A DNA stretch of 64,000 nucleotides, from NCBI GenBank assembly GCA_964106645.2, contig OZ067043.1; one strand, given 5' to 3'. The notes beneath the pieces are model-generated. The model was given only the letters and a program-made list of their open reading frames with translations, did no database searches and had not been told where the DNA came from. A program made the position numbers and the translations under genes. This DNA comes from Podarcis pityusensis. Taxonomy: Eukaryota. Positions 7,757-46,086 of this stretch are shown here, in pieces (within the stretch, counting starts at the first letter, position 1; the number at the start of each line of letters is the position of its first letter).

Positions 7757-7766
7757 TTTATTTATT
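7757..7766 (-). terminator. Candidate poly(A) signals (two overlapping AATAAA) for the env transcript
   Basis: Plus-strand TTTATTTATT. These are the nearest canonical minus-strand AATAAA I found, ~960 nt downstream of the env stop, within an old LINE-tail-like AT tract. Confidence 0.3.
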
Positions 7767-8723: not shown

Positions 8724-11084
8724 TCACAGGCTTCCTCTGGCGGCCTGTATCTGGTTCTCTAAATCATAAAGTCTTTGTGTTTGCCGCCTCATCCAGCTGA
8801 CCAGCAGCAACAAACTGATCACTAGCGCCACTTGAAATAATAAAATCACCACAATAGGGTGGAGAGCAATATTTAGCACTCCATTTGAACTTGGAGACCA
8901 TCCAAGAAGCACCTCCCACCAAGCGTGGTCTCCAGCAGATTTAACTGTGGCTACAATCTGGGCAATCTCCCTATTGCTATGCAGAATCTCAAGTGCAGCA
9001 TTTTCACCCATGTCTTTGATTTTCAACAATTCCTGCTTCAGGGAGGGGTGAGAAAGCAGGTTTTTCAGAGTAGAAAGGCCAAGGCCTAGAGAAATAGGCG
9101 AGATTTCTCGATACAAAGATGGGTAAGCCTTCATGTGCTGCACAGTCCAAACAGGTACCCGAAATTGGAAATCACAGCCTACAAGCACACTAATATTGCA
9201 AAAACAACGGTTAATATAAGGCAGCATAGGCTGGATAACCAGACCATTAATGATTACAAACTCACATGGCGTTCTTACACAAATACAGCCCTTCCCAGTA
9301 TACACAACAATAGAACTTTCTTCTTGGATTACATCAAAAGAGCAGTGGGAACTATTTACAAGCTGAGGAGAGAAGCATTCGTGGTGTTCTTCTAAACTGT
9401 TGTCATCACATACAAAGCCCAAGTTTTCCCTTTTCACACAACCTTGCACATTAACTGTTTGCCAGTCACCATTCCTCATCCGTGCCCACCTATTGGAGTC
9501 CCTGGAATACATGACCAAATCCTTGTCAATCTGGAATCCCAAGGGGACCACTGGATAGATTGGGATGATCTGGGTGGCTTCTACGGTTATTAAAAATAAC
9601 CGCAGCATATTCTGGGCAGAATCATAAGATGCATTTAGCAACCTCCACCAATTCTCCAAAGCTATTTCTCCTGAAGTGAGCTCTGGCCGAATTAAATTGC
9701 TCACCTCCATGGGAATGTTTCCCGCCTTGGCCTCTCGAATCATTCCCATGACTACATTCTGTGTGATTGCTTGTGCCTGTTCACATGCTAAAGCCAATGA
9801 AACATTGCTTTGGAGGGACTGGATTCCAGACACAATCAACATGCTGTCCTCTTCTAATATTGCTTCCCAGACTGGAAGCACTTTACTGATAGCTTGTGGT
9901 TGTTCTGTGAGCTGCAAGAGAGATTTGGTTAATGGAGCAGTCAGTTTCCCTATTTGTTTTGTGGAATATGAAAGTTTATTAGCCAAGACTTCTATGTTGG
10001 CTGCATCTATGAAAGAAAGACCTGCTCCTAGGGGCCCAAGCCAATCCATCAGTTCTCTTTTAACCCTTTCCCCATGATGTACTCCATCCCACATTTTAAC
10101 CCACTCCATCCAACCTCTGTGGCTGACTCCGAGAAAGGGAGCACATTGAGGTGCTCTCTGTGACACATTCAAACCCTCAAAATGAATCTGCACCTCCTTT
10201 AGTGAGGTCTGGGGGTGCATGACAATTTGTTCAGGCTGATCTAATTTCAACACATGAGACCCAATGATGGGGTTGGTCAAACGGCGAAGTGGGAGGATGT
10301 CTGTGATCAGGGGATTAAATGTAAGAATTGTTTTGTTTTGAGAGCCAAATTCTACCCGGTATGAACCTTGCTCACTTATTTCCTCTGTGATGGCAACAAA
10401 ACCATAGAATTTAAACCTAATAGAGGACATTTGTTGGTCACAGTGTGTCCCCCTGATCGGCACCACCCAGTCTGGTGGCCCCTGTTTAATTAAGTCCATT
10501 CCATTTAATTCCCACTCCTGAGATTCCCAATTAACGATTAGGCGGGTGATGTTCTTTCCAGAGGGCGAAATCAAGGACAGCTGGAACTGATCTCCAGGAA
10601 ACCTAGTGTTCTGGGTTCCAACAACAGTTCGCAGATGCAGCGGTGCACCAGGTTTCCATAAAGCAGCAGAAATGAGGGCAACATCGCACGAACCATCCTG
10701 GATGCTGCTGCTTTCGGCTGAACGAGAATCCAGATGTGTAGGCAAAGGTCGGCAAGAAACAGGAATGCGAACACTTGAACTGGCCGTCTGCATGCTGTAA
10801 CAAAAATGTCCAACTTCTCCACTGGTCTTGAGGGTGCAATTGGCTATGTCTCTCCAGTGGCAGCTGATTGAGTCTGAGACGGCATGGAACATGTAGAAGC
10901 TCTGGAACACTCCAGGGTTGGATCCATTGGCATACAATCCATGCATGCGACAAAGCAACCTTGCTTCAGCTACTCCTCCTTTCGGCAGACAGGCCCACAA
11001 CTTCACAGGGATGGCAGACACATTCGGGCTGGCAGAAACAACCATCCATCCGTTCCCCAGGAACAGCAGCAAAGGCAACAACAT
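8724..11084 (-). CDS. Intact retroviral-type envelope glycoprotein (env), 786 aa from the probable ATG; candidate domesticated ERV gene
   Basis: Single uninterrupted ORF (track 8724-11189). It contains a signal peptide MLLPLLLFLGNGWMVVSA, a furin site RVKR (10056-10067), a fusion peptide LMDWLGPLGAGLSFI, a heptad-like region and a Cys-rich ectodomain. These are followed by a Trp-rich membrane-proximal segment, a TM helix IVVILLFQVALVISLLLLVSWM and a ~21-aa tail. About 10 N-glycosylation sequons. Confidence 0.92.
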   Translation of the reverse strand: MLLPLLLFLGNGWMVVSASPNVSAIPVKLWACLPKGGVAEARLLCRMHGLYANGSNPGVFQSFYMFHAVSDSISCHWRDIANCTLKTSGEVGHFCYSMQTASSSVRIPVSCRPLPTHLDSRSAESSSIQDGSCDVALISAALWKPGAPLHLRTVVGTQNTRFPGDQFQLSLISPSGKNITRLIVNWESQEWELNGMDLIKQGPPDWVVPIRGTHCDQQMSSIRFKFYGFVAITEEISEQGSYRVEFGSQNKTILTFNPLITDILPLRRLTNPIIGSHVLKLDQPEQIVMHPQTSLKEVQIHFEGLNVSQRAPQCAPFLGVSHRGWMEWVKMWDGVHHGERVKRELMDWLGPLGAGLSFIDAANIEVLANKLSYSTKQIGKLTAPLTKSLLQLTEQPQAISKVLPVWEAILEEDSMLIVSGIQSLQSNVSLALACEQAQAITQNVVMGMIREAKAGNIPMEVSNLIRPELTSGEIALENWWRLLNASYDSAQNMLRLFLITVEATQIIPIYPVVPLGFQIDKDLVMYSRDSNRWARMRNGDWQTVNVQGCVKRENLGFVCDDNSLEEHHECFSPQLVNSSHCSFDVIQEESSIVVYTGKGCICVRTPCEFVIINGLVIQPMLPYINRCFCNISVLVGCDFQFRVPVWTVQHMKAYPSLYREISPISLGLGLSTLKNLLSHPSLKQELLKIKDMGENAALEILHSNREIAQIVATVKSAGDHAWWEVLLGWSPSSNGVLNIALHPIVVILLFQVALVISLLLLVSWMRRQTQRLYDLENQIQAARGSL

Positions 11085-11125
11085 CCTGGAAAACACCTGA
11101 GAGAAAGAGAACAGAAAAAGGATCT
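11085..11125 (-). promoter_or_regulatory. Splice acceptor feeding the env ATG
   Basis: Minus strand reads CTTTTTCTGTTCTCTTTCTCTCAG|GTGTTTTCCAGGATG: a polypyrimidine tract plus CAG (AG at 11098-11097), 12 nt before the ATG at 11084, which has A at -3. Confidence 0.8.
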
Positions 11126-11778
11126 CCGAAACCCCAGTTGCCTGGGTATGCATCACTACTGCAACTCTAGTTCTTTGATGAGGCATCATTGACAGGTGCA
11201 GAATCCATGAAAAAGAAGGGACTGCTGGTCCAAGTTAGCAATCAGAATGGCTACTAAGTGATGGACTGGATTCAGATTGAGACCAAGAATCCTGGGGGTA
11301 TATATTTCTGCTCAGAAAGCAGGTTATAACAAGGGACTAGTGGCCCACCTGGAATACATGCCAGTGGCATCAGCCAGCTAGCATATTTTACTTATTTTAC
11401 TAGCTTTCTTCCAGAATAATCTTTTCCAGATTTAGTATCCAGAAATCAGGGGATTTCTAGTGACCCAAGATTAAGAGATGCTTGGCATCCCTGAAAAGAG
11501 AAGAGAGAGAAACCCTTTTATTTAGTTGTCTACACACTTGGCATTCAACATGGAAATTTTTGGCTGTAATGCTCAACAGACAGTCAAAGAATAGCAAACC
11601 AATTTCTACTTTAATTATGAAATTTAAAAACTTTCCACTCCTCCCAACACTGGAAACTTCCACTCTGCATATTCTAGGGGAGTTCAACAATTATCAGTGT
11701 TTAAATACTTGTTTTTCTTTTCTTTTTTACTGAGATGACAGGACAATCCAGAATGTATTCTGGGCATGGGGATAGAGA

Positions 11779-14110
11779 TTTATTCTATTTATTTAACAAA
11801 TTTTAAATACTGCTTGCCTGTAAGAAAACCTCTAAGTGGTTTAAAGGTAAAGGGACCCCTGACTATTGAGTTGTGGACGACTCTGGGGTTGCGGCGCTCA
11901 TCTCGCTTTACTGGCCTCTAAGTGGTTTACATAAGTATAAAATAAAGCATTAAACCTCAGTATAAGAACAGTTAAAATAGGTATTTAAAAACATGTAGAA
12001 GACTATCATAATCAACACTAGCAAAAAAAGAGAAGATGCTTATGTAGCTTCTACATGTCTGAATAGGATTGCCGAAACAAAAATGTTTTAAGCAGGTGGT
12101 GAAAATTACAGCGAAGGTACCTGCCTGATGTCAAGCAGGCAGGGAGTTCCAAAGTATAGGTGCTGCTACACAGGAAGAACAATTTCTTGTAAGTATTGAA
12201 CAAGTATTATGTGGCACCATTAATGCTGTCAGTTCTGCAGATCAAAGCAGTTGAGGGAGCATATATGGAGTAAAGTGATCTTGCAAGTAAAATGGCCCCA
12301 AGCTGTTAAGGGTTTATATTCTAATAGTAATTCCTTGAACTTGGCCTGGTAGCAAATGGGCAACTGGTGCAGAACTCCAAGCAAGGGTGTATATGCAGTA
12401 TATGCAGACAGGGTTTCATTCCTGTCAGTAACGGTGCAGTAACTAATTGCGGCTTCTGGTTCAAGTGCATGGGAAGCCCCACAAAGACTGAACTGAAGTG
12501 CACTGCAGTAATCCCATCTTGAAGTCACCAATGCTTGAACTACTGTGGCCAAGCTATCCTGGTTCAGGACTGGCTGTTGGTGTCACCCTAGTTGCATGAA
12601 GTAAAGGGCACTTCTAGCAAATGAGGCTACCTGGGCATCCACTGGCAGAACAGGTTCCAGAAGCACCCCCAAACTGCTCCTTCAGAGAGAGCGCATCCAG
12701 GGAAATCAGTTGACTAATTGCTTGGACTAAAGAATCGCTCATCCACGGTATTTCTGTCATGCCAGGATTCAAGCTTAACATATTTTCCTTCACCCATCCT
12801 ACCACTGGATCCAGGCACCAGTCCAGGGCCCGCACCACCTGCCCTGATGCAGGTGTGATGGAGAAATAGAGTGAAGTGTCATTAGGATACTGATAACTCA
12901 TTGCCCACAAACTCCTAATGATCACTCCAAGCAGGTTCATGTAAATATTAAATATCACTGGGGAAAGAATAGTGTCATCCTGCTTCATGTAAGTGCAAAG
13001 GACCACAAAGCACTCTCCCTAAAAGCATTGTCCTGTAGGTAGGACAGGAACCATTGGAATACAATGCCCTCCAATTCCCATTTGACAGTGTCAGTCCAGA
13101 AGGATACCATTGTCAATGATACTGAAAGTCGCAAACAGAGCAAGAAGAGAAAGCAAAGTTGCACTCCCCTTGTCCCACTCTTTGAAAAGATTATCCACCA
13201 GGGCAACCAAGACGCAATCCCATGGCCAGGCCTGAACCCAGACTGAAACAGACCTAAATAATCCATGACATCCAATAATGCTTGCAGCTGCCCTACCAGA
13301 ATTCTCTTCACCACCTTCCCCAATAAAGGTAGTTGCAACTGGTTGATATTCTAGTCCAAGGGGTTCAGGCCTGGTTTCCTCAGGAGAGGTTGCACCACAG
13401 CCTCTTTCAAGGGAGTAGACACCATCCCCTTACGGACTTCAGTGCCAACCATACTCTGGCCCCAAACAGTCAAACCCCCTCTGCTAGCTTTAATAAGCCA
13501 GGAGGGACAGGGATCAAGAGGATACATGGTCAGGCATACAGCCAGGACCTTGTCTACATCAGCAGACTGCATCAGCTGAAACTGATCTCACAACACATCA
13601 TTGACTATGGCACTGGGTATTTCATCTAGAACTGCAATAACCGCAGAATTAAGGTCACTCTGAAGTCAAGTGACTTTATCCTCAAAATATATAGCCAGTT
13701 GGTCACAGTAGGTCCTCTAATGCTCCAGAGGTCCTTCCCCCTCTGTGGAAGTCAGTAACATTCAGAATGTTTGAAATAATTCCACTGGCCAGTGACTAGA
13801 GAATGCAATGCAAGCTGTGAATGAGCCTTCTTTGCAACTTGCATGCACTGCCACATGGTTGGCACAGTTACTGCACTAACCAGCGTTCAGTCAGCTTCAG
13901 AGTGAGACTTGTGTCACTTGCACTCTAGTCTTCATTCTGCTTGCTTCATAGCCCGAAGCTCTCTAGAATACCAAGGAGCTGCCCTAGCTCCACAACGCCA
14001 TAGAGGATGCTCAGGAGCGAATATGTCAACCACTCATTTCATCTCACTACTCCATAGTGAAGCATCAACAGGATTGTTCAGACTGTTTAGGAATTCCTCA
14101 AGAATTCAGG
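11779..14110 (-). mobile_element. Decayed non-LTR retrotransposon (L2/CR1 clade) ORF2 remnant
   Basis: Broken RT fragments (LDPCPSWLIK, LKEAVVQPLLRKPGL, LPLLGKVVKR...FQSGFRPGHG, LSPVIFNIYM, VVQALVTSRWDYC) with many stops and frameshifts; AT-rich 3' tail near 11780. The 5' boundary is approximate. Confidence 0.85.
11844..11914 (-). mobile_element. 5'-truncated Sauria SINE-like insertion with 15-bp TSD
   Basis: ACCTTT-type tail (plus-strand AAAGGTAAAG); perfect TSD CCTCTAAGTGGTTTA at 11829-11843 and 11915-11929. Confidence 0.8.
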
Positions 14111-14696
14111 AGCTCCTCAAGTTCCTTTAGTCTCGGAGAGTGGGCCATCCAAATAGGCCTACTTTACTACTAATTACTACTAATGTTGACAAGGGACTGA
14201 ATTGCACCCCCACCACCACCAAAAAAAGTTTGATCTATCCCTCATATCACTTGGGCTAAAGACAACATCAAGATTGTGCCCTGCCTGATGTGTTGGACCA
14301 ACAACCATTTAAAACAGTCCCATGGGGCTCTGCCACTGGGCTACAGGGCAGTTGATAGACCAGTTACATTCCCAGTTAGCCACACAACTCCAGCTATACT
14401 TTCCCCTGCCCATCACCACTGAAAGTGGGGGAACATATTCACAACTCCTTCCTACCTGCCCATCCAGACACATCCTGGCACCATAATCCAATGTCATACT
14501 ATACAGCTGGGCAATTAAGGCCACAGATAAACAAAGGTCCAGTAGTGGGCACATCCCACACTTTCAGATGGAAGGTAGTAACTTCATAACAACTCTCCTT
14601 ATGCTGTCTCTCACTCAGAGGGAACCCACCAAACCAAGTTTCTCCTCTTCCTGGCTTTCACAGGCCTGCTTTCCACATTCTCATTTTCAGTATCCT

Positions 14697-15058
14697 AGAA
14701 TCATAGAATTGTAGAGTTCGAAGGAACCCTTAGTGTCATCTAGTCCAACCCCCTGCAATGCAGGGATCATAGCTGAGAAACCCTTAACATATCCTTGACC
14801 ATCCAACCTCTGAGGTAGTCAATTCCATAATTGAATAGCTCTTACCACCAGAAAGTTCTTTCTCATGTTTAGACAGAATCTCCCTTCCTGTAATTTGAAT
14901 CCACTGCTTTGGGTCCTACCCCCGGGAGCAGCAGAAAACAAGTTTGTTCCATCTTCCATGCAACAGCCCTTCAGATATTTGAAGATGGGTATCATATCAC
15001 CTCTCAATCTTCACTTCTCCAGGCTAAACATACCCAACTCCCTCAACCATTCCTCATA
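14697..15058 (-). mobile_element. CR1 LINE 3' fragment
   Basis: ORF2 C-terminus (RGDMIPIFKYLKG...GGRTQSSGFKLQEGRF.LNMRKNFLVVRAIQLWN) and ATTCTATGATTCTA tail. Confidence 0.9.
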
Positions 15059-17109
15059 AGGCTTTGGGGATACCCTGCCACAGCTGATGTGTGAATCTGC
15101 ACACATCAGATTCTGCATCTACACTCCAGCTATGTCCACTCAACTAGCATTCAAGCAGTACCACTCACTGCAATCAGCACAAACACTCTCTAACCTGAAG
15201 GCAGAGATCTAACAGGACAAAAACTGCGTGGTCATCCTGTAGATTTGCTCTCCTGCTGATGAAGCAGCCGCCTATATAAAGATGCTTGCCAATCCCACCT
15301 ATCCCCCCCCCCCCACATCTCCATACCTTCCCCATTAACCCCTTACACCAAGAGTGGGCAAGTGTTCTGGGTCCCACCCCACATGCTAGCTTTGACAAGT
15401 AGGGAGAGCAACCCACCTGCCACGCACATGACATTATTATGGTATCACATGATTGTTCCACCCTCCTTTCAAAATCCCTTGTGGGGCTTCCAAGCACTTG
15501 CTGCTGCTGAAGGAAGCCACAGAGAAGCCTGCATTTTAAAATGCAGCCAGTGGTCCAGGGCTGCTGCAGCCTGTTCCAACTGTCCCTCCGCAGCTCACTT
15601 CCCTTCATCATACTATAATTCACAGAGCCACCTATCTGTGCCCAATCAAACTTCAGGGTGATGGCATTCTTGCATATTTATGATATGTAAGCTATATTAA
15701 ACTGTATTTATTATTTTCTCAATATAATTGCTGCTTTTTGAATAAAACCTGTAAATGGCATTACAGACATCAGGAAATTCTGATTTATTTCTGCCTTAAA
15801 TGCTTGTTTCCTTACCTTCTTAGTCGCCCTTCTCCAATCTGTTATCCTCCAAAAGCTTCAGACTACAACTTCTTTCATTCTTGACTGTTGGTCATGCTGA
15901 CAGGGGCTGATGGGAGTGAATTCAAATCACTAGAGGACACACCAGGCTGAGGAAAGCTGTTCAATGCTGTTAAACCCAGATTTACAGCAGAAGTCTAACC
16001 ATGTCTACTCAGAAATAAGTCCAATTGAGTTCAATGAAGCTTACGCTCAGGTAAGTTGGGTTAAGACTGTAGCCTTACTTTCTTTTGCAAGTGGCCCATG
16101 CTTTGTATTCTGAACGAAAGCCTATGCTGAAGTTTCATATAAGTTAATTTTATTTTTCAAGAACTTCCAGCCAGAAGCTAGTAGGTTCCTCTCCTTCTCT
16201 GTTTTCCTAGGCACAGAGAGAAACTGCCACTCACACCAACAATTCAGCTTTGTACTGGTAGCATTGCAGTCTAGGCTGCACTCATCCAAGACAGCTGGAA
16301 AAGTGTTTAGCAACCCTTTTGCCCCCTCTACAGATGCCTTGAGATTGCTGACTGAACAGTGAGAAATCTGGAACTATTAACTTTACAGAGTTGCATTTTC
16401 TCACCTCATTTGCCAGTCATATCAACACTTTCCTGTCTGGCACCCAAATACATTTTCAGTGTGCAAAACTAAAACACCTGCGGATGAACAGATGGCCCTG
16501 CAACACTAAGACTCTCAGACACTATGCCTATGAGAGAGTAAGAGTCATATCATTGTACACCAACAAACGATGGCACCAAGGCCAACAAGGCAGTGCTAAG
16601 TCATAACAAAATCTACCGTACCATCCATTCTGCCAAGGACAAAGTCTCCTGAAGAGATCAGAACCAGAGGCTTCAGAGCAAGTTCCAAGGGCATCATGGC
16701 AGGTTCCCTTATCCCTGGAAAAGGTTCCAGTTTAACAACAACATGGGTAATAAAATAAGATGAAAACACTTATTAAAATTCCTGCCTCTTAAAATCTTAA
16801 ATCTAACCACTGGAAGTCAACCCCCAAAAGGGTGATTTCCCAATGCTTCTCAAAAGTGCTGAAGCTTGATCAATCTCAAAATAACAGAACTTCCAAATTA
16901 ATGTTGCAGCCACCAAGCATACCTTGCTTCCAAACAATCAAGAGGGCCTTCTTGGCTGATCTAAGATGTATCTTTATATTTTAAGATTACAGAAAATGTG
17001 AGGAGTCGTATATGTCTACTTATTTCAGAGTGAAGAAAGGAGAGAATCTCGAAAAGGTTAACTTCAGGCAGAGGTGCCTCCAACAATAATTTGTCAGACT
17101 TTAAGAATA

Positions 17110-17335
17110 CAGTGGTACCTCAGGTTAAGAACTTAATTTGTTCCGGAGGTCTGTTCTTAACCTGAAACTGTTCTTAACCTGAAGCACCACTTTAGCTAAT
17201 GGGGCCTCCTACTGCCGCTGTGCCGCCAGAGCACGATTTCTGTTCTCATCCTGAAGCAAAGTTCTTAACCCGAGGTACTATTTCTGGGTTAGCGGAGTCT
17301 GTAACCTGAAGCGTATGTAACCTGAGGTAACACTG
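17110..17335. mobile_element. Tc1/mariner-type MITE (same family as 5203)
   Basis: Same TIRs and internal sequence, TA flanks. Confidence 0.85.
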
Positions 17336-18208
17336 TAGTGGCCATTTTTTCACAAGCGTGAATTTAGAACTAATCCAGAATAACAAAACAAGTGAGGATT
17401 AGAATCTAAACCACACTTTACAGAGCAGTTGCTAGAAACTCCATCAGTAAAGAGGAAAAACAAGACAATGTCATAGGAACGTATTTTTTTCACAAGGAAG
17501 TTCAAAGCTCTGTGTAGAAACTTCTCTATGAGTCATTCATGAAGAAGGAAGAAAGGCTTTCTATAGAAATCTAGAGATTTTTCCTGTGGAAATTTTAGCA
17601 TGCTTACACCTAGGGGAATTTTTTTATGGTGAATACTTTAAATATATCTATATATATAAAATAAAGAAATGCATATTCAAGCCAACAATTCAAAAATTGC
17701 TCTTCTGGTAATAAGGGGTTTGGGGAGTTCCTTCATGCAACAAAGTGGGTTTGATGAAAAACCCCTCAAGTCTGGAGCATTTAATTGCAGTATTACAAAA
17801 GACAGGTCCAAACCTCCTCCAATCAGAGCGGTCTATAAATCTTGTCTCTTCAGAAGTAAGATTACTTTAGATAACACTGTGAGGATTAAAAACTGAGCAA
17901 ACAACAGGAGACAATTCTGTTAATGATTTTCACAGGGATTAGTAAGGCATAATAGCTCTCCCACATTTCTCAGGGCAGTGTATTTTTTTCTCCCCTCCCC
18001 GTCCCAAAAAAGACATCAATCACTGTTACTGGTTTTTGAGTCCAAAACAAGAAATATGTTGGAATTGATGGATTGTCAAAAGGTATTAAGAAAGAGTTGC
18101 CAAGAAAAGCGACTTCACCTGTCATAAAAGCGAACACAGAATGAAGTGGCAGCAAAAATGGCAGGATCTCACTAGCCTGTACTTGTCTTCAGAAATCTCA
18201 GATTTTTC

Positions 18209-18211
<3 letters not shown>

Positions 18212-18244
<33 letters not shown>
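18212..18244. repeat. (TA)n microsatellite
   Basis: Direct reading. Confidence 0.95.
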
Positions 18245-18246
<2 letters not shown>

Positions 18247-21155
18247 GAAAAACATTTACACATCAAATAAAAAATGATGGTGGGAGGATGGGGCAGTAGA
18301 GGAGACAAAGAAAGGCTTTGCTCCTATTAATGTTCAACATCAGTATTTTGATCACCACTTGGGACTCTCATTTGCTCACCAACCCTGCCAAACCCCACAC
18401 TGTATTGACAACTCCCATCACCCCAACACCCTTACAGCTCCTTCACCCCAACACCCCCATATACCCATCACAACCCACCCGGTTTCCAATCTCTGTCTCA
18501 CAGTTTGTCCAAAACTCGTGCCTCCTCCAACATTTCACCCTAGTCTCAAGATCCGCTGTCACCGTCAATCACAGAGAAGAGGGGCATGAAGAGAAGAGAG
18601 CTTTCCCCTCTTTCAGCACGCACCACTTTCACTGGCAGAAGAAAGCGTGCATTTATAAATGGACACTTCTTTCTGGTGGCAGTGAACTAAGGGGAGAATG
18701 TTTTCAACCTGTAGCAGCAGTGGCGACGATGACAGGGAGCACCCCTTCAGCTTGTCTCCCCTCATTGTCCCCGCATGAAACCAAGCTAGGAGGCAGCGGG
18801 TGGCTGCAACAACAACAGGAGGGACATGTGAATGCCCACCTGGGCCACCCACCTACCCACTTGCTTGCTCTGCAGGCCTGTTTACTCATGCTACTGACCT
18901 GCCTGCTTTGGTCACTCACTCTGCCCGCTGTTGTTGTGTTGCAATTTATGTGGTTGCCAACTGGCAGTCACACAAATTGCAGTGTGAAAAACTTTCTCGT
19001 ATATAGGAAGATATAAAATGCCCCTACTCGGAAGCATCTGTTAAAAATAGGTTTGGTTACTCCTGAAAGCTAGTATCTTATTTCCTATTTTAAAGCAACA
19101 CAAAAGGCCCATGAGAAAGTTTTCCTGCCAGGGTGTAACCCTATCTGTACATCTGAAGAGCAGCATCTCTTCCCAGTCAGCTCTCTTGCCAGCATCAAGG
19201 CCGCATATGGAAAACAGAATGAAGCTTTTTTGTCAATAAATACAAATAAGACCATGGTCATATACTCAACTCAGAAATGTAATGAATGTGGGAACAGACT
19301 GCGATATAGTTATACTAAGAGTAAAGACAGCAAGAAGACCCATGGGGTTCCTTCCAACTCTATAAATCTAAGATTAATTGGTTATGGTTTATATCCTTCT
19401 ATTTCCCCAAGAAATGCAGATCAGAATACCAGATGTTTTGGTGGTGGAGTTTTAAGTAAGAAATTATTTATAAGGGCCTTGAGAAGTCATTTCAAGAGCA
19501 GCAAAGGCTTTTCCAGAGAGGGCAGTTCTGAACTTTGACAAATGGATGCTTTTCTCTTTGGTAGACTTTTAGCATGTCTCCGTTATATGGTCTTTGCCCA
19601 GCCAAATTCACCACAGATGCTGACCATTTGATTGGGCATCTGTTCCTGCACTCTGCATGTTTCTTAAAGACTGTACACCACCAGGGCAGTGTTTCTGAAA
19701 TGATAATGTTGATCCTCTCAGAGGATGGGAAAGGACAGCGAAACTCCAAAGAAAAGGGCTTTATCTTGCAGATTGTTTTGTTTCAGATACAAACAAAATT
19801 CCAGCTGTGAAAAGAAAGGATAGGACTTTCTCTAGTATGTGACAACTAAAGAGGAACTGAATGGGTGAGTCTTATATGCCTTAATAGAGTTGATGGGTGG
19901 GTACTAAAAATTTTAGTCAACAGAAGGGATGAACATGTCACAGTCGTCTTTGAAAGATGGGCCATGTACATGCACAGATCCTATATATGGGTTGGCAAAC
20001 AGAGACACTTAAAAGAATAACAGTTGCAAGTAACTGCATCACTATTGTAAATTTATATACCATGTCCTTCTCCAAGGAATGGTGGCTTTAAAAAAAACAA
20101 ATAGTGAAATCAGAGTAGATCTATTGAAATTAATGGACCCAATTCAGTCATGTTTCAGTGGATCTACTCTGAGGAAAACTCAGTTGAATATCACCCATTG
20201 CTTAAAAAAATAGAACGTAATGTAAACCTCCAAAGCCTCAAAGATAATCAGTTTTCAATTGTGCCCAGCATCTGTTTACTACTGAATATTTTGATGACTT
20301 TGCTGTATGCACTATACAGCAGTTTTCACAACAATGGCAATATCTCTAAGTATCATAATTGATGTTTCATCAGCATTCTCACCTTAATAGCTCTACTTGA
20401 CCTGTGAAATTGCTCTGTGGGAACCACAATTTCCTGCTGAGTCTGTTTGGAATGTTACGCTGCTTTTCAATTTTAGATTTTAATGCTCAGTCTCTAAAAG
20501 AAGAAAGACAGTACATTGCCAACACCTAAAATCCTACAACATCTTCCACATTAAAATGGCCATATTCTAAGTGTTCAGCTACTTAGAAAGAGAAATGCCA
20601 CTGCTTTACTTTAATAGCATATTATTACCAGGTGCTCAAATATAATCTGCTATGGTGAGAAACTGTTATACTAATGTTGCATGCTCACCAAAAAGTTCAG
20701 AAAATCACACTGCAGGGTTTCATTTCATTCGGGTGAGATGGAACACAGCTGATCTGTGTCTCTGAACAAAGGCAGAGCCTATTGAAAGCAGCCTCAGCAG
20801 AAACCCGATGCTGATATACTGAGCTTAATTAACACAGTTGCTTTGAAAGATTCAGGGCAGTGGCATGTTGAACTACCTTCCATGAGAATTTTCATAACAA
20901 AACTCACACCACTTATTCATGATCCTGCAGCTCAAACAAACAGAACCGAGAATAGATCAGAGGCCACTCACACGTCTCCAGCCTAGATCTCTGTACGCCC
21001 TAACACAGCGTCTCCTTTTCCAAATGCTAAGAAAACAGAAATTAAGGTCTTACTGACTCCAAGCAATATATTGTCCCTACATTACAGAACCCTAAACATC
21101 CTCTTGCCTGCACACTGGCCGCAGTATATTAAAACCATGAAAAACAGCAACTCAC

Positions 21156-21189
21156 CCGCCAGGAGAATTCAGCAGACTGCCTGCAGCAT
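21156..21189 (-). other. Possible alternative non-coding exon
   Basis: Strong donor GCGG|GTGAGT at 21155 and a weaker acceptor CTCCTTTCAG at 21190. It could instead be the 3' end of an alternative first exon. Confidence 0.3.
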
Positions 21190-21933
21190 CTGAAAGGAGC
21201 ATGTGACTTTTGTGTACTTCTCTATCGCTCCGCCTCTGCCTCTGCCACCTGCTCAGAGTGTTTATGGAATTGCTGGCCAAGAAAATAGCACAGCTACTGC
21301 TTCATGACTGCACTCAAATTCCTTGCCCTTTCTCAGTACAGTTTTAGAAGAGGGTTGTACATGAAGCCAGGGGAAGCAGGGAGTCCCCAGAAAATTCACT
21401 GGTGGTGTTACAAGTCAGTAATTCAGACCCATGTCATGATCAGGGTGCAGGAGGCTTCTTTTGAATTGAGGCAGTGGCCACCCACAGTGACCCAGAGCAT
21501 ATATACCAGTTTTGCTCCCCACCCCAACATACACACTTTTTCATTCATGTTTATAAAGTTCCTGAAAGGAGCTTTTGAAATAAAAATCAGAAAAGTAAAA
21601 CAGGCGGAAGCTGTTCTTTTGCCATGGAAATGACACAGTCACTACACCACTCCCTGCTATTATGCCAAATGTAGGTAATACAGAGAAGATAAGCAGGCAG
21701 GTTTCAGAGTGAGCTCTCCCTCTTTGAACAGGGTGTTGGAACTTGTAAATCTCCCATGACTACCAACTAGAAATGAGAAGGGAATGTAGTTTTCTGAACC
21801 AGACCGATGACCACAAACACAAGCCAGAATTATCATTCATCCCATACCTACTATTCACTGAAAAGCCTCCTGATGTTTATTGTTTAAAGATACCTTAATT
21901 ACAAGGCTCTGAGTATCTAATGCTTTCAAGATC

Positions 21934-21935
<2 letters not shown>

Positions 21936-21999
<64 letters not shown>
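21936..21999. repeat. Compound (CA)n(GA)n microsatellite
   Basis: Direct reading. Confidence 0.95.
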
Positions 22000-22002
<3 letters not shown>

Positions 22003-22445
22003 TTAATGTCACCTCATTAGAGAATCAAAAATCTTTAACCAACTGACTAATCTAGGGCAGAGGTGGTCAAAGTGTAGGACTCCAAATGCTCGGACTACAA
22101 CTTGTATCAGCCCCAAGCATTGGACATACTGGCTGAATCTGATGGGAACTGTAGTGCAAAACATCTGTAAAGCCACTGGTTAGCCACCCTAATCAAGATG
22201 GGTTTTTTTATTTTTAAAAAAGACAACAGGGCAAATTACCACTAAAATCTCTCTAATTTCACAATATCATTAAATAATCTTGTATCAAACATATTGCCAG
22301 CAAGTAATTTTAACCACCTCTCTCTAAGTCTCTCTTTCCATGCCAGAAAAACAATAATCCTACCCTCAGTAGGAATGAGAAGAGTTATACCATTCTAACT
22401 CATGATATATCCAGAACACATGAACACACACACTACTGTAACTCA

Positions 22446-22452
<7 letters not shown>

Positions 22453-22493
<41 letters not shown>
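22453..22493. repeat. (CA)n microsatellite
   Basis: Direct reading. Confidence 0.95.
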
Positions 22494-22495
<2 letters not shown>

Positions 22496-22794
22496 CCCAA
22501 TCTTGCCTTTTCTCATGGAGATGGATAAAGCAGGTGCTAACCTGCATGCCATTCCTAAAGTTCTTCAAAATCACCTTGACTCATCAGACTGAGGCAGATA
22601 AAGGATTCAAGACGTAGCTGAACTGGCACACACTGACCACCCTGCACCCAGCTTTTGCAGAAGCTAGTGGATCCAAATGTGCTGTTCTAGCCAACTCCTT
22701 TTTCCTGGCCAAAACTGGTAAGTCTGCCCAGCAATAATTATATGGATCTTCCTAACCATATTCCTTCACCTACAATGGTTTATTTTATTGACCG

Positions 22795-23005
22795 ATTGCA
22801 TTTATATCCCACCTTTGTCTCCAAGGAGTTCAAGGCGGCGTACATGGCTCCCCCAACCACCCTCATCATTTTATCCCCACAACAAGCTTGGGGTGTAGGT
22901 TAGGCTAAGATACAGTGAGTGGCCCAAGATCACACACTGAGCTTCATGACTGAGTGGGGATTTGAACCCTGGTCTCCTAGGTCCTAGTCCAACACTCTAA
23001 GCACC
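22795..23005 (-). mobile_element. tRNA-derived squamate SINE
   Basis: B-box-like GGTTCAAATCCC in a tRNA-like head on the minus strand, with an AT-rich tail. Confidence 0.65.
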
Positions 23006-25722
23006 ACCACACCCCATACACAATTTAAACATGAACACACAGAGCATCTGCCAGGTTGCAGGGTTAGTTTCTGGGTGTGAAGGGTGCAGATGGCTTCCCA
23101 TTTGCTGCTTCGTGGAAGCACATGATGTGTAGAAGAAATGCAGTCACACACTGTTTAGTGCACAGGGAAGCCGTCCTCTCGCAGGCAGCACCTGCATTTG
23201 GCCTTGGGCTCTAAGTGCACTGAGTGGTCTCTACATCTTGCCACCTGCATGCACAAACAATAGGCAGCACAGTGCCCTCTGTCGTCTAAATTGCTTATGC
23301 TCTTGTCACTGAGTGAACTATACTACATGTGCATCTTTAAAAGAATCCTGCATTACAAGAGCCGTTCACAATTAATCCTGTGTATTTGTCGCAACACAAG
23401 TATATTTTCAAAACTGGTAATTCGCCTTAAGAGTAAAAGGGTGCAATTTCTATTAAAGCATTTTGTTACTCTCCCAAACACAAAGCAATCCAAGCACACT
23501 AAATATCACTGCTTCTCAACCAGTTCAGAAATTCATTCTTCTCCCCTTCTGTTGCCCACTGGTGAATAGGAATATTTGGATTTTACTCTTCATCCCCAGC
23601 AAAAAGGCAACAGCAGGGTCACTGTTCCTACTCTGGAAGTGCTTGCAGTGGTATGACAGGGATTTTGTATCCCCATTTCAGGCTTTTGTTTTTACAGAGG
23701 GTGTGATCCATGCACAAAACTTGTTCTATCATGAGTATCACTTCTTGAAGGAATCTGCCTTGTGATTACAGTGTAACAAAGGGCACTCTAAAAGTTTGGC
23801 ATTTTCTTTACAAAAGCAACAAAATAAACAATCATTTCGCAATCAATATCAAGCTACATATTCATATTTAAAAGGCGTCTGTTTATTTATTTGCTTCCTG
23901 CCCTTTATTATAAAGTCCCTTTACAACCATAAAAATATACAATTATAAAACAAGTAAAACAGTTATAAACATAAAGCAAGATAAGTAAAAACACTTCCAT
24001 TTAGAAAAAGTTAAAAACAATTCCACAAATTAAAAACAGTTTCAATATAGTTCTAATACAGATGCATTCATTTTACAGCAACTATAGAAGTGAAATCTAT
24101 TGTACCCTGCCCCTAGGATGTTGGGATGAAAGGCAGGTTGAATACCCTTAATAAATAACAATTCTTCCTTCTTCTAATAAAATATGACAAGTCCAATGAA
24201 GATACAATGGTGATATGATTAAGACAATATTAAATTATAGAAATAAATCTTCTGCAATAAACAGTTTTGTTACCATCATAAAGTTAAAGATTAAAGTAAA
24301 TGTAAGAGTGAGTTTAAGATTCCATTTTGGATATACATTATATCATTTTTGCTGTTATCCAGATTATGTTCTTGTATTTTATTGTTGGGCCTTATTATGA
24401 ATTATCAATGGACTAATTTTAATGCATATTTGCTAACATGATTTTTTTCATTAGGCTGTTGTTTATATGACTATTTAAATTTTGTTATGTATTGTAATTG
24501 TTAGTGAATTATCTTACATAAACTTTTTGATGTGAGCCATTTTGAGGATGGTTCAGCATGGAAAAGTGGCATACAAATAAATAATGGTGGCAATAATAAA
24601 CAGAAAGCTACTTGGGATTTCTTTTAGGTTTCAGATGCTCCACTTCATTCCAGCTAATCTCCATATACCACAAAACAATGACAATGGTCCATGCTAATTC
24701 TTTCAGCACACCACTGGGTCAGCATAGGCGAGACAAGATCACATTGCACAAAATTCCAGGAAACATAGTAGCTCCTCCATTTACTCAAACATTAATTTAC
24801 AACCTTTAGCTTTACTGAACTGGCAGTGTGGGAATGCCTTAAATATGAACAGATGAGTTTGCAGAAGAGCACAAACAAAACCACTATAATTTTCTGTCCT
24901 CATTTCTGAAAGGCTACACAGAGGGTGGAGTTGTGCATTATATCAAACCTGGTAAAGCCAGGGAAATACATGACTTATACCTGGTACTAAGAAACAACAG
25001 CCTTGTCTTAACCAAGGTAACTAGGCTTGTGAATCAGTCAGCTAAGCCTTCCAAAGATAGGCAGTGACAGTATTTACAAACTATATGTGAATCCTTTTCA
25101 TGCAGCAGAATTGCACAGAAAGGTATTCAACTAGGTTTCAATGAAAGTAGACCCATTAAAATTAGCTGACTTTATACAGTCATGTTCATTAATTTCAATG
25201 GGTCTACTCTGAGCGAAACTTAGTTAATTACCACCCATATCATTTAATGAACAGGATTTGGAACAATTTCAGGGACTGACAGTATTTTACAAAAACACAG
25301 GAAAGCATCAGTATCTAACATGCACTCATTTAAATGCTAATAATTCTTCTTTTTCACAGAGGGAGTGCTGTAAGATACAGAGAATAAACTACCAAACATG
25401 AGTAGAATTTAGCAGCATGCTACCCACAACTCCAACTCACACTCTAACTCCATAATACTCTAAAGCACAGATTAAAACAGAAGGTTAATATACATTCTCT
25501 CGTTTATTACTGTATTTCACAGATAACACTGAGAGATATCTTGTTCATTTATATTTGTCAGCTGTTCAAACAATAAGAAGTACTATTATCACATGCAGAA
25601 TATGAAACCAACAGAATCTGAAAACAACCCCCACATCCATTGCTGGGACTTTCCAGAGTATAATCCAATATATAATCAAATATACCTAGAACCCCCAAAC
25701 TGAGATTTTAAGAGCAGGTTAC

Positions 25723-25813
25723 CTCTTTTGACCAAATTTCTCCGTTCACCTGTTGGTGAAAGCCAACCTGTCGTTACCATGTCAGCATGAAGGAAGTCCC
25801 AGGTGGAAAGAAA
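25723..25813 (-). other. PPARD: Non-coding 5' UTR exon 2 of the CpG-island gene (probably PPARD)
   Basis: Acceptor TTTTGCTCTCTTGCAG| and donor GAG|GTAAC define a 91-nt exon. It contains GGCTTTCACCAACAGGTGAA, resembling recalled human PPARD exon 2 (GGCTTCTGCTCACCAACAGATGAA). Confidence 0.65.
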
Positions 25814-25976
25814 CTGCAAGAGAGCAAAACACGTTTCAACTCCATGCATAAACGGCACCAAAAAAAAGGTTGCAATTTGAAGCACATGTGAAGAAAAATG
25901 TACTGAACTGGGCTTCATTCCAAACAAGTAAACAGAGCTTTAGGATTTGCTTTAGATAAACAGAGAGAGATAAACA

Positions 25977-26111
25977 CATAGAGGGATGAGGAACCTGTGG
26001 CCCTCCAGATCCTCTTGGATTACATTTTGCATCATCAACAACCACACTGGTTGTGGCTGATGGTAGATGGAGTCCAACAACATCTGGAGGCCCACAAACT
26101 CCCCCATCCTA
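25977..26111. mobile_element. Palindromic hAT-like MITE; related copies near 15855, 22060, 27160 and 59072
   Basis: Inverted ends GGAACCTGTGGCCCTCCAGAT...ATCTGGAGGCCCACA, recurring in the window. Confidence 0.6.
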
Positions 26112-27405
26112 AGCCCAGAAAGTCATATTCTGGCTACATAGCTACGCTTTTCTTGTGCACTTAGATGGACGCTTATTAAGGATCTAGTTGTAGTGCTGAA
26201 GAGCTCTTAAGGCAGTGGTTTTCAACCAGTGTGCCATGGCACCCTGGGGTGCCTTGAATGATGGTTGGGGGGGTGCCACGGGCAACAATGGCCTCTGTCC
26301 CTCTTTCCTTTATTCCCTCCTCTGATTCCCTCTTACGTCTATGCCTCCCAAAGGCATGTGTGACTGTTTGTTGCAGCAGCTATAAGCTCCCAAGGTGACT
26401 CTGAGGCTGGCCAGGAGGTGCTTCCCAGGCCCCTGTAGGGCAGTGTGAGGAGGCACCTCTCTTTGGGGCAGAGGGGCAGCTCAGAGACTAGGGGCAGCAG
26501 CTGCGGAAGCCCAGAGGACTTCCAAGGAGAGGGGCGAGGAGAGGAGGCTGAGGGAACATTTCAAGTGTGGTGCAGCAGGTAATAATCGGGTGTCAGAATA
26601 AGACCTAGGAACCGTGGCCTCAATTCCCTGTTCATCAATGCGGCTCACTTGTTAGCTCTGAACTCTACTCACACAACTCTCTAAGTTTCAGCTGTCTCAC
26701 AGGATTGTTATTAGGATAGAACAGGAGAGGAGAGAAGTATGTTCTCAGTTCCTTAGAGAGACAAAAGAAATATAAAAATACCTAGAAGTAAACATAAAGT
26801 ATGGATCCCCTCTTATCACAAGAGAGAAAACAAGGACCCTTGCCCTACACCTCCCAAATTGTGAACAAAACCAAAGTTTATATGCGTTTTCTATCCCTCA
26901 GTGCTCAATGTTGTTTTCCATTGTCTTAGCTCATGGACAGAATGAGCTAAGGTGCATATTAAGGAGAGGTTTTGAGCATTCACTGTTGATGCTGGGGAGA
27001 AAGAAGTTAAAGAACCTTTTGACCTTGTCCACTGACTCACTCCCTTGTGATAAGTTTCAGACAATGACGCTGGCCCTTCATTGCTCAATTCAAAATATGG
27101 TTCCTGTTAGTGGTATTTTCTGTCATGCAAAGCTTGAGAATGACCTTCTTACTAGGCCAGGAGTGGAAAACTTGTTAGTCTACGAAACACTGTTGGACTA
27201 TAACTCCCACTATCTTTGATCACTGACCATGCTGGATGGGGTTGATTTGGAAGGCCCACAGATCCTCCCGTCCAGCTCTTGTGTAGCTAAATAACTTTTA
27301 AGGTATTTGCTCAATTTCTTTGGATGGCTGGTGGCTACCACAAAGCCACTAGAATGTTTGCATCACATCCCATGTTCCTGTGTGGGAACCGAAAAGTTAG
27401 GTATA

Positions 27406-27624
27406 CAGTGGTACCTCTAGTTGTGGACACGATCCGTTCCTGGGTGTCGTTCACACCCCAAAAAGTCTGCAACTAGAGCGGCGTTTCTGTGCAAGCGCGG
27501 AGCGCAATAGAGCGCTTCTGCATGTGCGTGTGTGGCAAAATTCGGAAGTATACACTTCCAGGTTTGCCATGTTCGCAAGCCAAAAAGACGCAAGATGAAC
27601 CTAACACAACACAAGGTGTGACTG
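27406..27624. mobile_element. Tc1/mariner-type MITE (second subfamily)
   Basis: TA-CAGTGGTACCTC start and degenerate ...GACTG-TA end; internal sequence differs from the 5203 family. Confidence 0.7.
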
Positions 27625-29699
27625 TAGTAGTTTAAATATATCCAGGAAAAGAGGAAGTTGAGTCCTTGCAGCTGTCTGGTAAGAAATAGTATCAGAAGTC
27701 TGCTGTTGCTTTGGGGGACTGTTTGATGCTGTGCTAAGGCTAGCATTATCACATTGCTGTCCAGTCTGCCTTATAGCTTCCTCCCCATGCTAATTTTGCA
27801 TGCATGTAACAGATAGGTATCATGGACACATTGTAAATCTGAACAAACACCTCCAAGCATCATGCGAATCTGTCTCAACTTTAATAAAGGCTTTGGGCAA
27901 GGGTGGGGAACATTTTTCACCAGCCTGCAGGCCAACTTTGACAGATTTAACAGGACAACCCACTTGCCAATCCCATGATGTCATTATGGGTAATGGGAGA
28001 GCCCTTTGCTCCAAGCAAAGGAGTAATCAGGAGTTTACAGGTTAAGCTCCCCAATGTTCATTTGAAGGCATGTCTGTACCAGCCCAACACCTAATGTCAC
28101 ATATAGGCCAGGTGTGGGTGGTTTGGAGGTGTCCTCAAGGACCAAACTGGGTCTGGGACTCTGTGCTGGGCCCAGTTGGCCCACAGATGGGAGCTTCACC
28201 ATCTTTGGTTTATGGATTTTTCACAAGATAGGCACCAAAACCAGAAGCAAACCAGTGCATTTTGAAAGACTCTACACCATGACAAATATGAACCTTTTAC
28301 TTTAATAAATTTCAGAAAGCAGCAACTATCAAAGACGACAGCATTTTCTTCAAAACCTTTTTAACATCACAGAATTGCAGAGTTGGAAGGGACCACAAGG
28401 GTCATCTAATCCAACCCCCTGCAATGCAGGAGTCTTTCACCCAACATGGGGCTCAAACCCACAACACTGAGATTAAGAGTCTCATGATCTACCGGCAGAG
28501 CTATCCCTGAAGAACTTTAGCAAGGATAACTTTATCACTATTCCAACTGTCAAATAATAAAGGGCAATAACTAATGTACTTTTAAAACATCTCTTTCCAT
28601 AAAAAAGTTATTTAGAATCAAATATCATAATGAGGAATGTATTTTATTTAGTCCACTCAGTACTCTAAATCTATCTTGAATATCAGGCTGAGATAAAACT
28701 ATATCAGGATAAGAACAGAGTGAAGCACAAATCTACTATTCTGTCTCTTTCTATCACTTTTGTTGACAGCTGTACTTTGGGGTTTTTCTCCTCTGTGGCT
28801 TAGTAGTATGACTGTTTGCCAGCACATGCTTCCACTTTCCTTCATCCTTCTCAAGACCCCATCAAAGCAATGCAGCCCACTACACTACTAAAACGAGGAT
28901 AACCAGCTGGGCAGAGGTGGCAAATCATGGTTGCTCTCTCTGGGCAGCATGCTAGGAAGGACTGGTCTTCATGGTGCCACGGGGGGGGGGGGGGAGATGC
29001 TGCCCCCCTCAGCTTGTTTGTTCTTTTCTCATTGTCCCTCTTCTCACCGCAGTAGGGAGAATAAGGATTGGAGTCCCTGGCCCCAATTCCCATTGACGTG
29101 CCACCCAGAGAGAGGATAAGGCAACTATTCCATGCAGAGCCAGCTGACTTTAACCATTCTGGGTTCCCAAGTAGTGAGGACTGGGTAAAACCTACAGTAC
29201 TGCACCCCCTAGAGAGTGTACGAGGGTTGAGGTGATAGCTCAGAAAGTGTTGCAGAGTCTCCTCCTTCCCAACACAGTAGGCAAGCAACTCCTGCCAGGA
29301 TAGCCACTATTTTCTCTGGGCATCTCGGTTGGCTCAACTTCTCTCCGCAGTGCCATCTACAGAGGAGAGTGGGCAAAGGCAACAGCAGCTACCTTCACTC
29401 TTTGACTGGGTGGTGTGCCCAGCCCCTTATCATTGCACCTCCCTACAGGCAGCGTCAGCCGGTCCCTGCCACTGCCTCTCACTTCCCTACTTTGCTGGGA
29501 AAGGTAGCAGCATCAACGGCCCTTTTGCCATCTGCCTCTGAGTGGGAAGGGGAAAGGGTGAGGAGGGGATACTGCTGCCACTCCCTCGGGGGACACACTA
29601 GGCAAAGGGGACTGGGCCCAGCAAGTCCAATCCTCACCCTCTCTACTTCCAATGTAGAGGGAAGAGGGCAAGCAACCAAGGAGAGGAAGCAGCGGATCC

Positions 29700-30720
29700 T
29701 GCAACGCCATGGGGCCCGATCCTCCACAGCATGCTACAAGCACGCCCGATCCGCCACTCGCTTTGGTGGGTGGGGGGGTGGATTTTGGATAACGGGGGTT
29801 TGTTGTTGGGGGCGAGTTGCTGAGGGAGCAGCATAACCTAGGACTGGGCTGGAGGGAAGGAAAAGCTAAGACGCAGGTTTTCCTTATTTGTTTTCTTCCC
29901 CCCTCCTTCCAAGAGGGGTGGGGGACGGGAGGAAGGGGCAAGCGAGCACCAGCTGTCCTGTGCCGTGTGCCTCCATCCTTCCCCCCAAGCCTCGGAGGGT
30001 GAAAGGGGGTTGCTGGTGTCACCGGGCAAGGCACGCAGCCAGGCAACGGGGCCAAGCTCAGCTGCAGCTGACCCGGAGCAGCCGCCACAGGGCACCCCGG
30101 AGGCGGACAGGCCTCGGCAGATACCCCAGGGCACCGACAACCGCCCCCCCCAAGCTCCCGTCTCGCGAGGCGCCACACAGAACTGCCCCCGTCCCTTCTC
30201 CGCCCTACAAACGCCGCCCGCTTCCCCCGCCACCTCACCTGCCGGCCGCGAAGGGCGCGCGCTCCCCGGCCGCCCTCGGCGCAGAACTTTTGTCATGAGA
30301 AACCCCAACCCGGCCCGACAACCACAGCAACCTCTCTCTTCTTTTTTTTTTTTTTTTTTGTCCCCGCCCACCCTCTCGCTCGCGTCACGCGCGCTGGGCC
30401 TGGCGTCACCGCGCATCGCCACCCCCGTTGGCCAGTCAGAGGCGCGAGGGAGGTATTAGCATATCGCCACGACGACGGCCCAAGCCCGTTCCCGCCCCCC
30501 TGAGGAGAGAAGGTGCTCTCTCGTCAGCAAAGGAGGCCAACCCTGTGGCTGGCTACCTCCTTCCCCGGTGCTCGTCGAGTGGCAGCGGGTTCTTCCGTGG
30601 AAGCGGCCGTCCGAGGGCGGAGAGTCCCTCCAGCGGGAGCGAGAAGTGGACGCCCGTCTCCGATATCGGACAGGCGGGTGCAAACAGGGCCAGGGACTTT
30701 CTGCATCTGGTCGCGGTGCA
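29700..30720. promoter_or_regulatory. PPARD: CpG-island promoter (probably PPARD), transcribing leftward
   Basis: The clearest GC- and CpG-dense non-coding segment in the window. GC boxes (CCCGCCC at ~30363 and ~30491) and CGTCA half-CRE sites (~30382, ~30403). It lies ~8 kb downstream of the DEF6 stop, matching the DEF6-PPARD tandem order known in human. Confidence 0.75.
30239..30340 (-). other. PPARD: Non-coding exon 1 (probably PPARD); 5' end approximate
   Basis: Consensus donor GCAG|GTGAGG at 30238. TGGGGTTTCTCATGACAAAAGTTCTG resembles recalled human PPARD exon 1 (TGGGGATTAATGGGAAAAGTTTTG). Confidence 0.65.
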
Positions 30721-30938
30721 GAAGGCACCACTGAGGCTATTGCAATCCATTGAAGGTGCTCTTACTCCGTGGAATAAGCCCCACTGAACTCAAGGGGGTA
30801 TATGAGCATCTGCTTTCATAGAATCATAGAGTTGGAAGAGACCACAAGGGCCATCGAGTCCAACCCCCTGCCAAGCAGGAAACACCATCAGAGCTTTGCA
30901 TGCAGGAGGTGCCAGGTTCAATCCCCGGCATCCCCAGT

Positions 30939-31046
30939 CATGGGCATAGCCTGGATTTATTTATTGGGGGGGGGGGGGCAGAACCGAGCTTTTATTAAAA
31001 TTTCTTTACTTGATTTAGGGGGGCAGCTGCCCTAGCTATGCCCATG
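30939..31046. mobile_element. 108-bp hAT-type MITE nested in a SINE
   Basis: Perfect 12-bp TIR CATGGGCATAGC/GCTATGCCCATG; 8-bp TSD TCCCCAGT at 30931-30938 and 31047-31054. Confidence 0.85.

Positions 31047-46082: not shown

Positions 46083-46086
<4 letters not shown>

Follow-up and report, generated by a model that had tools for sequence, protein, structure and literature searches.

A 64,000-nt stretch of the genome of the lacertid lizard Podarcis pityusensis (assembly GCA_964106645.2, contig OZ067043.1), hereafter the window (G000:C6:44144001-44208000 of a 1.5-Gb genome; positions below are window coordinates unless stated), contains an intact envelope gene of retroviral origin, env, lying in sense orientation in the 5' non-coding portion of PPARD, the gene for the nuclear receptor PPAR-delta. 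Squamates have probably retained it for more than 150 million years. Its age and its conservation across lizards and snakes are the main point of this work, and one that a preliminary description of this DNA, made from the sequence by a single reader, had overlooked. Most probably, env is an alternative last exon read from the PPARD promoter, with the non-coding exons 1 and 2 shared between the two products.

The env open reading frame (ORF; 8724-11084, minus strand) runs for 786 codons from an ATG at 11084 without internal stops, and its product is 99% identical to one Podarcis lilfordi protein. The protein is laid out as a signal peptide, a surface subunit (SU) with a beta-sandwich, a furin site (RVKR, residues 340-343; 10056-10067, minus strand), an F-like fusion subunit, a membrane anchor region (residues ~730-768; 8781-8897, minus strand) and a short tail. 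Its N-terminal segment is hydrophobic, hydrophobic 19-mers in the anchor region begin at residues 730-750, and there are 10 N-glycosylation motifs; a fusion-peptide-like segment and helical repeats were found together with the furin site and the anchor. The protein carries neither of the motifs of a gamma-type Env, that is, CxxC in SU or CX6CC in the transmembrane subunit. Most squamate ORFs start four codons earlier, as MLSKM, at the position of the splice acceptor described below (11096-11085); those of lacertids begin at the second Met, and the Zootoca frame differs within these 12 nt.

With 27 of 27 candidates scored, env was the sole full-length match in the genome, and the other eight were partial, at 24-40% identity. 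Degraded relatives of the env family thus occur elsewhere, for instance L005/L006 (G000:C6:35516086-35516612), L002 and L003, which are 24-40% identical and interrupted by stop codons or changes of frame.

A profile search recovered 357 proteins at E <= 0.001, of which some are fused to reverse transcriptase, RNase H, protease or integrase; fusions to such enzymes confirm the retroviral origin of the family. The best described relative was ORF3 of chicken Ovex1 (LOC422926), 35% identical over 511 residues (274-781; E 1e-105), and on this relationship we class env as an Ovex1-type captured retroviral env. It is not the orthologue of Ovex1 itself, since it resides in PPARD and not between CD8 and SMYD1 with gag-pol: the two belong to the same env family but are different genes.

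To characterize the fold, we used a structure model of residues 134-735, built on a 72-sequence alignment (predicted local distance difference test score, pLDDT, 72.6). In the comparison with the PDB, all the matches shown were F proteins of paramyxoviruses or pneumoviruses (best E 6e-9), and comparison with models of viral proteins returned epsilonretrovirus Env (E 2e-12), baculovirus F and foamy virus Env. The model therefore places env, by predicted fold, among the F-like class I fusion proteins. Two results speak against this assignment: TM-scores were low (0.13-0.26, normalized by query length) and an earlier model, built for the whole protein, was of low quality (pLDDT 42.8). We ascribe the low TM-scores to domain placement in the monomer model and, because of them, use F-like for a fold family and not for a close match. 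Features from a language model (Atlas) scored 0.83-0.88 for the F-like link and served as leads only. Pfam, including PF00523, gave no match for the window protein or for any of the 72 members of the alignment, and a sequence search of the PDB produced no match to env.

Outside the aligned part of Ovex1, the SU beta-sandwich (residues 134-258; window ~10685-10311) was modelled confidently. Its fold matches were weak and included an alpha-2-macroglobulin domain (E 0.011); from the model, it is a candidate receptor-binding domain.

We found no long terminal repeat (LTR) or gag/pol remnant near env. None of the 19 minus-strand open frames of at least 60 aa at 11.1-20.5 kb (0/19) matched retroviral Pfam families, the segment 11100-11800 is single copy, and a genome-wide integrase search, with 56 of 6640 candidates scored, was uninformative. 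The 3' untranslated region of env contains a young interspersed repeat (8089-8470), with 39 other copies at 87-90% identity (40 scored of 2340 candidates). We considered this repeat as the 3' LTR of env and rejected it as too young, given the 87-90% identity of its family copies.

Close relatives of env, 79-98% identical, were listed from 26 squamate species (lizards, snakes and an amphisbaenian); in this listing, one cluster was represented by 15 of its 21 members. The hosts comprise lacertids, the amphisbaenian, an anguid, a monitor, agamids, pleurodont iguanians, pythons, a boa, colubrids, vipers and elapids, and the protein is full-length in 24 of the 26 species listed. The R-x-K-R motif was kept in 16 of the 16 squamate proteins checked, and the fusion subunit is the best-conserved part of env. 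Comparison of the window with two runs from a related organism (X1 and X7, described below) yielded 17 synonymous and 10 non-synonymous differences, a non-synonymous to synonymous ratio (pN/pS) of 0.17 (binomial p = 7e-6), as computed on the 27 coding differences shown of ~35. Env is under purifying selection. That these squamate genes are orthologous would follow from the PPARD name that they bear in 20 of the 26 species and from junction peptides with PPARD exon 3 in Elgaria and Varanus, the DNA having been read in this genome only. Among the protein matches listed there was no named orthologue from a gecko, a skink or the tuatara, and those from Gekko kuhli were fragments only ~33% identical.

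The preliminary description had speculated on a link with placental development, and this was not supported. Podarcis, Lacerta, Pogona, Anolis, Python, Pantherophis and Varanus include egg-laying carriers. As many genera that lay eggs carry an intact copy, placentation is not what keeps the gene, and because many carriers lay eggs we do not file env as a syncytin.

Two side observations concern the relatives of env. The elapid proteins P0027 and P0040 (Naja and Notechis; 814 aa) have a cysteine-containing tail that is 25 residues longer, and two full-length Logan proteins (P0006 and P0041), 90% identical to each other and ~60% to those of squamates, have a non-canonical cleavage site.

To identify the host gene, we examined four 10-kb stretches to the left of the window and found there the coding exons of a nuclear receptor, which share the strand of env. 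The ligand-binding exon scored 307 bits against PPAR-delta, versus 242 and 209 bits against the alpha and gamma receptors. The ATG of PPARD lies ~5.2 kb left of base 1 and the first coding exon, which we call exon 3 after the numbering of the human gene, begins ~5.1 kb left of base 1. At the other side of env, a CpG island (29751-31000; GC 0.57-0.69, CpG observed/expected ratio up to 0.94) is the presumed PPARD promoter; in 500-nt windows at the CpG-island threshold, it was the sole island from the PPARD ATG to 64 kb. With the coding exons downstream, the only CpG island upstream and all of them on the minus strand, env belongs to the 5' non-coding portion of the PPARD transcription unit and has the same orientation. 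Both the identity of the host and the orientation that env shares with the CpG-island gene had been proposed in the preliminary description, and both are borne out.

Beyond the first coding exon, one 500-nt window in a PPARD intron (L010, ~2000-2500; G000:C6 ~44136000-44136500) was CpG-rich and is probably a repeat. Upstream of the CpG island, at 44716-49158 on the minus strand, there are exons of a SWAP70/DEF6-type gene, with a PH domain (best PDB match KIAA0640) and a coiled coil; in human, DEF6 is a neighbour of PPARD.

Splice sites were ranked with a simple consensus score over positions 1-31000 (2218 AG and 1815 GT sites). The env acceptor, a polypyrimidine tract followed by AG (11096-11120, minus strand; first exon base 11096, 12 nt 5' of the ATG), ranked 2 of 2218, in agreement with the strong acceptor previously noticed there, and its use is supported by RNA. 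Reads and contigs from four runs of a related organism (X1, X7, X21 and X23) were mapped to the stretch 5950-25949; X1 and X7 consist of contigs, taken for RNA by guess only, and X23 of raw stranded reads. The runs found to contain the sequence included 14 taken for RNA by guess, of which two were used, and four of raw reads, of which two were used; none was listed as RNA on record. In run X1, env was covered by a single contig (8547-11094; depth 8.68) that stops at the acceptor. The mean depth of 6.2 in the bin 10619-11285 equals 8.68 x 476/667 by hand calculation, indicating that this run has no coverage in 11097-11285. Depth in the repeat-free intron bins of X1 was mostly 0-0.4. The env contig of run X7 (depth 12) stops at 11098, within the AG common to the intron and the upstream exons, and a second contig of this run (11069-11688; depth 6) resembles its introns (depth 3-9). 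The contig ends at 11094 and 11098, together with a junction peptide in a P. raffonei RefSeq protein (see below), support use of the acceptor.

Run X23 provided the strand: in all four env bins (depth 0.4-1.8), reads ran in a single direction, as expected for minus-strand RNA. These raw stranded reads, along with the exon-shaped contigs of X1 and X7, demonstrate that env is transcribed. At the 3' side, contigs stop at 7756 in X7 (depth 18.4) and at 7852 in X1 (depth 7.5), and coverage declines past these points. Accordingly, the env exon has its own poly(A) site at approximately 7750-7850, beside a tandem AATAAA (7757-7766, minus strand) that likely marks the end of a terminal exon of 3.35 kb (~11096-7750).

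Three candidate non-coding exons lie upstream of env on the minus strand. Candidate exon 1 (30239-30340; 5' end approximate) ends at a donor that ranks 2 of 1815 and falls outside the stretch examined for RNA. Candidate exon 2 (25723-25813; 91 nt) has an acceptor of rank 21 and a donor of rank 51. Its bin had a depth of 3.21 in run X1, versus 0-0.36 in nearby repeat-free intron bins, and of 0.70 and 0 for the two strands in run X23, matching minus-strand RNA. The third, which the earlier reader overlooked, is a candidate exon of 142 nt (11349-11490) with the first-ranked acceptor of the region (11490, 1 of 2218) and a donor at 11349 (12 of 1815); it adjoins env on its upstream side, in the single-copy region, and has stops in frame 1. 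Its RNA bin was swamped by repeat reads. The donors proposed in the preliminary description at 30238, 25722 and 21155 are located as it said, these numbers being the first intron bases and 30239, 25723 and 21156 the corresponding last exon bases. Although donor 21156 scores high (5 of 1815), we rejected an exon ending there: depth in its bin was zero in runs X1, X23 and X21, and 2.89, the intron level, in X7.

Two internal donors of env (last exon bases 9490 and 9470; 9470-9490, minus strand) allow exit to downstream exons, including PPARD exon 3. The X3 protein of Elgaria leaves env at 9490 and ends in LEGTA, and in that frame PPARD exon 3 of the window genome begins LAGTA-stop; a Varanus model exits at 9470 and likewise ends in LEGTA. 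Thus, env and PPARD exon 3 are joined in models from two species. Short forms from Crotalus and Vipera also exit at 9470. The Varanus model bears the name 'ABCB8' and was considered as a second env locus; we discarded this, as the name is wrong and the model represents the same env, with letters of PPARD exon 3.

In 20 of the 26 species, the env protein is named 'peroxisome proliferator-activated receptor delta isoform', although it contains no PPAR sequence, and often 3-4 transcript accessions correspond to one identical protein. This name indicates that the annotators' transcript models tie the env exon to PPARD, and implies shared non-coding exons. In the P. raffonei RefSeq X1 protein, a CR1-type peptide passes to VFSRM exactly at the acceptor, there being four codons between 11096 and the ATG. 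The window has a sense-oriented 3'-end fragment of CR1 at 14843-15061 (minus strand), in which 14846 resembles a donor; the P. raffonei X1 model takes its first exon from a related copy of CR1.

A mechanism can be proposed from these data. Its starting point would be an ancestor of lacertoids, anguimorphs, iguanians and snakes in which an Ovex1-type env entered the 5' non-coding region of PPARD in sense orientation. Transcription would start at the PPARD CpG island, and the non-coding exons 1 and 2, optionally with 11490-11349, would be made. From these exons, splicing could take either of two routes. Use of the former viral acceptor at 11096 would add a 3.3-kb last exon that carries its own poly(A) site and encodes Env, whereas skipping of env in favour of PPARD exon 3 would yield PPAR-delta. 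No coding sequence would be common to the two products. Minor forms, in which internal env donors are joined to PPARD exon 3, may yield a truncated Env lacking its anchor or a target for decay. In a PPARD-expressing cell type of the host, Env would still act as a class I membrane fusogen that is cleaved by furin.

Several observations weigh against this wiring. The joints 25723->11096, 30239->11096 and 11349->11096 were absent among the joints listed, a further 62 joints and 1446 loose ends falling outside the listing and exon 1 lying outside the mapped stretch; reads from short interspersed elements (SINE) and CR1 repeats filled the joint tables, which is why they did not identify the exon partner of 11096. 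Runs X1 and X7 are RNA by guess, and X7 reaches a depth of 3-9 in introns. Six of the 26 species lack the PPARD name, the newer annotation of P. muralis splits env off as LOC144324844, and the name could partly stem from 3' links to exon 3 instead of shared 5' exons. Finally, Zootoca X1 and an 821-aa model of P. lilfordi read unspliced through the acceptor. The latter models, the X7 contig that stops at 11688 and the junctions from env to exon 3 would all fit a local promoter at ~11.5-11.7 kb, from which a short first exon would be spliced from donor 11349 to 11096, making the transcripts that continue into exon 3 products of an alternative PPARD promoter. We consider this unlikely, because no acceptor in the region outranks 11490, which is what an internal exon would show, because 11100-11800 contains neither a CpG island nor a repeat-derived LTR, because the depth of 6 of the X7 contig equals the intron level of that run, and because most species with the PPARD name list full-length Env only. 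Still less credible is that env is a fragment of a young intact provirus in a PPARD intron, with read-through noise as its transcripts. The low expression in raw reads (depth 0.4-1.8 in X23) would suit such a fragment, but conservation refutes it: ORFs are full-length in 24 of the 26 species listed, at 79-98% identity and across four major clades, and env is single copy, with a pN/pS of 0.17 and sharp, exon-like coverage in run X1. We therefore favour the reading of env from the PPARD promoter as an alternative last exon. The wiring put forward in the preliminary description is supported in part, by the PPARD host, the use of the acceptor, the poly(A) region of the env exon and the ties in the annotation; the exon at 21156 and the placental link are not supported.

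The function of the protein is a separate matter. On balance, its sequence favours a working fusogen, having kept the furin site, the fusion subunit and the anchor. With the same wiring, the protein could instead have been kept as an antiviral receptor blocker or as a non-fusogenic surface or secreted protein, which is the less likely function but a serious contender. Receptor blockers are usually short-lived and fast-evolving. Annotated short forms without an anchor in Elgaria, Crotalus and Vipera would suit such a role, as would the lack of a canonical furin site in the two distant Logan relatives, whereas purifying selection on env, its strongest conservation in the fusion subunit and the retention of furin site and anchor throughout argue against it. 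Capture of env genes for receptor interference is well known (PMC8922424).

The squamate genes may not be the only ones of this kind in reptiles. A Pelodiscus protein is 57% identical to squamate Env and an Alligator protein, which is short at its N terminus, 60%; the two are 81% identical to each other. This pattern, in which the turtle, alligator and Logan proteins are placed by identity, fits the reptile tree but would equally fit a related insertion elsewhere. The ancestor of all living reptiles dates to ~280 million years (My) ago. It is conceivable, although we regard it as doubtful, that the turtle and alligator proteins are encoded by orthologues residing at this site in PPARD, which would trace to a single capture ~280 My ago of an F-like fusogen that still works and is splice-switched against PPAR-delta.

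Comparison with known captured genes places env close to Ovex1 in several respects. Ovex1 has resided in birds for >100 My, flanked by CD8 and SMYD1 on chromosome 4 (PMC2717909). Its ORF3 resembles the window env in being old, in lacking the usual gamma-type motifs and in starting just after a splice acceptor (11 bp in Ovex1, 12 here), but Ovex1 keeps gag-pol and its own promoter, and ORF3 has no clear signal peptide and an unrelated N-terminal third (PMC2717909). HEMO (ERVMER34-1), ~100 My old, uses a cellular CpG island; it differs in being a mammalian MER34 env with a gene of its own, and sharing of host-gene exons is not described in the text consulted (PMC8978518). The fish gene percomORF, posited as the oldest captured env, lies in an intron of DNAJC6, but its control region overlaps the last exon of the host gene, and the text consulted describes no alternative terminal exon (PMC12813294). 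As regards wiring, Lyosin, an exon from L1 ORF1 in MYL4 of reptiles and birds, is alike in being an ancient transposon ORF used as an alternative host exon and hidden under the host's name in RefSeq; it differs because it is LINE-derived and makes a fusion protein, whereas the window env is retroviral and shares no coding sequence with its host (PMC12129022). PPARD is absent from the Lyosin paper and its 10 supplements (PMC12129022). As regards protein architecture, Lokiretrovirus Env is described as having a signal peptide, an RXKR site, a coiled coil, an anchor and a likeness to paramyxovirus and pneumovirus F, but it matches PF00523 by sequence, unlike the window env, whose likeness comes by fold and language-model features (PMC7947760).

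Within squamates, a captured env is also represented by Syncytin-Mab1 of Mabuya skinks (Cornelis 2017), which is reportedly placental, of gamma type and restricted to skinks; the window env differs from it in the absence of CxxC and CX6CC and in its presence in egg layers, and one of Env-Mab2-4 could be the same gene as the window env. We found no description of an env gene within PPARD in the literature, although Wang and Han 2020, said to report 177 co-option events, Cornelis 2017 or their supplements could list it. The env gene itself is thus likely, but not certainly, new; the new aspects are its likely age, its F-like class, its egg-laying host range and the alternation of Env with a nuclear receptor.

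These results have a practical consequence for squamate genomics. The gene has gone unnoticed in databases under the name 'PPARD isoform X1': at least 20 squamate annotations have, as their longest 'PPARD isoform', an Env without PPAR sequence. Pipelines for orthology or selection that rely on the longest isoform may therefore mistake Env for squamate PPAR-delta, and counts of PPARD RNA combine both products.

The lacertoids, anguimorphs, iguanians and snakes shared a common ancestor ~170 My ago. If env is orthologous across these groups, as the annotations suggest, it would be ~170 My old, perhaps 280, and older than HEMO, Ovex1 and percomORF; a capture 280 My ago, if true, would have more than twice the age of any of the three. 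Env would then exemplify long-term domestication of an envelope gene in egg layers, outside placentation and for an F-like, non-gamma class of Env, and its wiring would let one promoter make either a viral fusogen or a nuclear receptor, each to the exclusion of the other. Squamates have a fused beta-layer in their shedding epidermis, and PPAR-delta drives keratinocyte differentiation and is also active in muscle; as a hypothesis from this general background, Env may act in the fused beta-layer of the epidermis or in muscle. Because anoles can be gene-edited, the function of env is directly testable.

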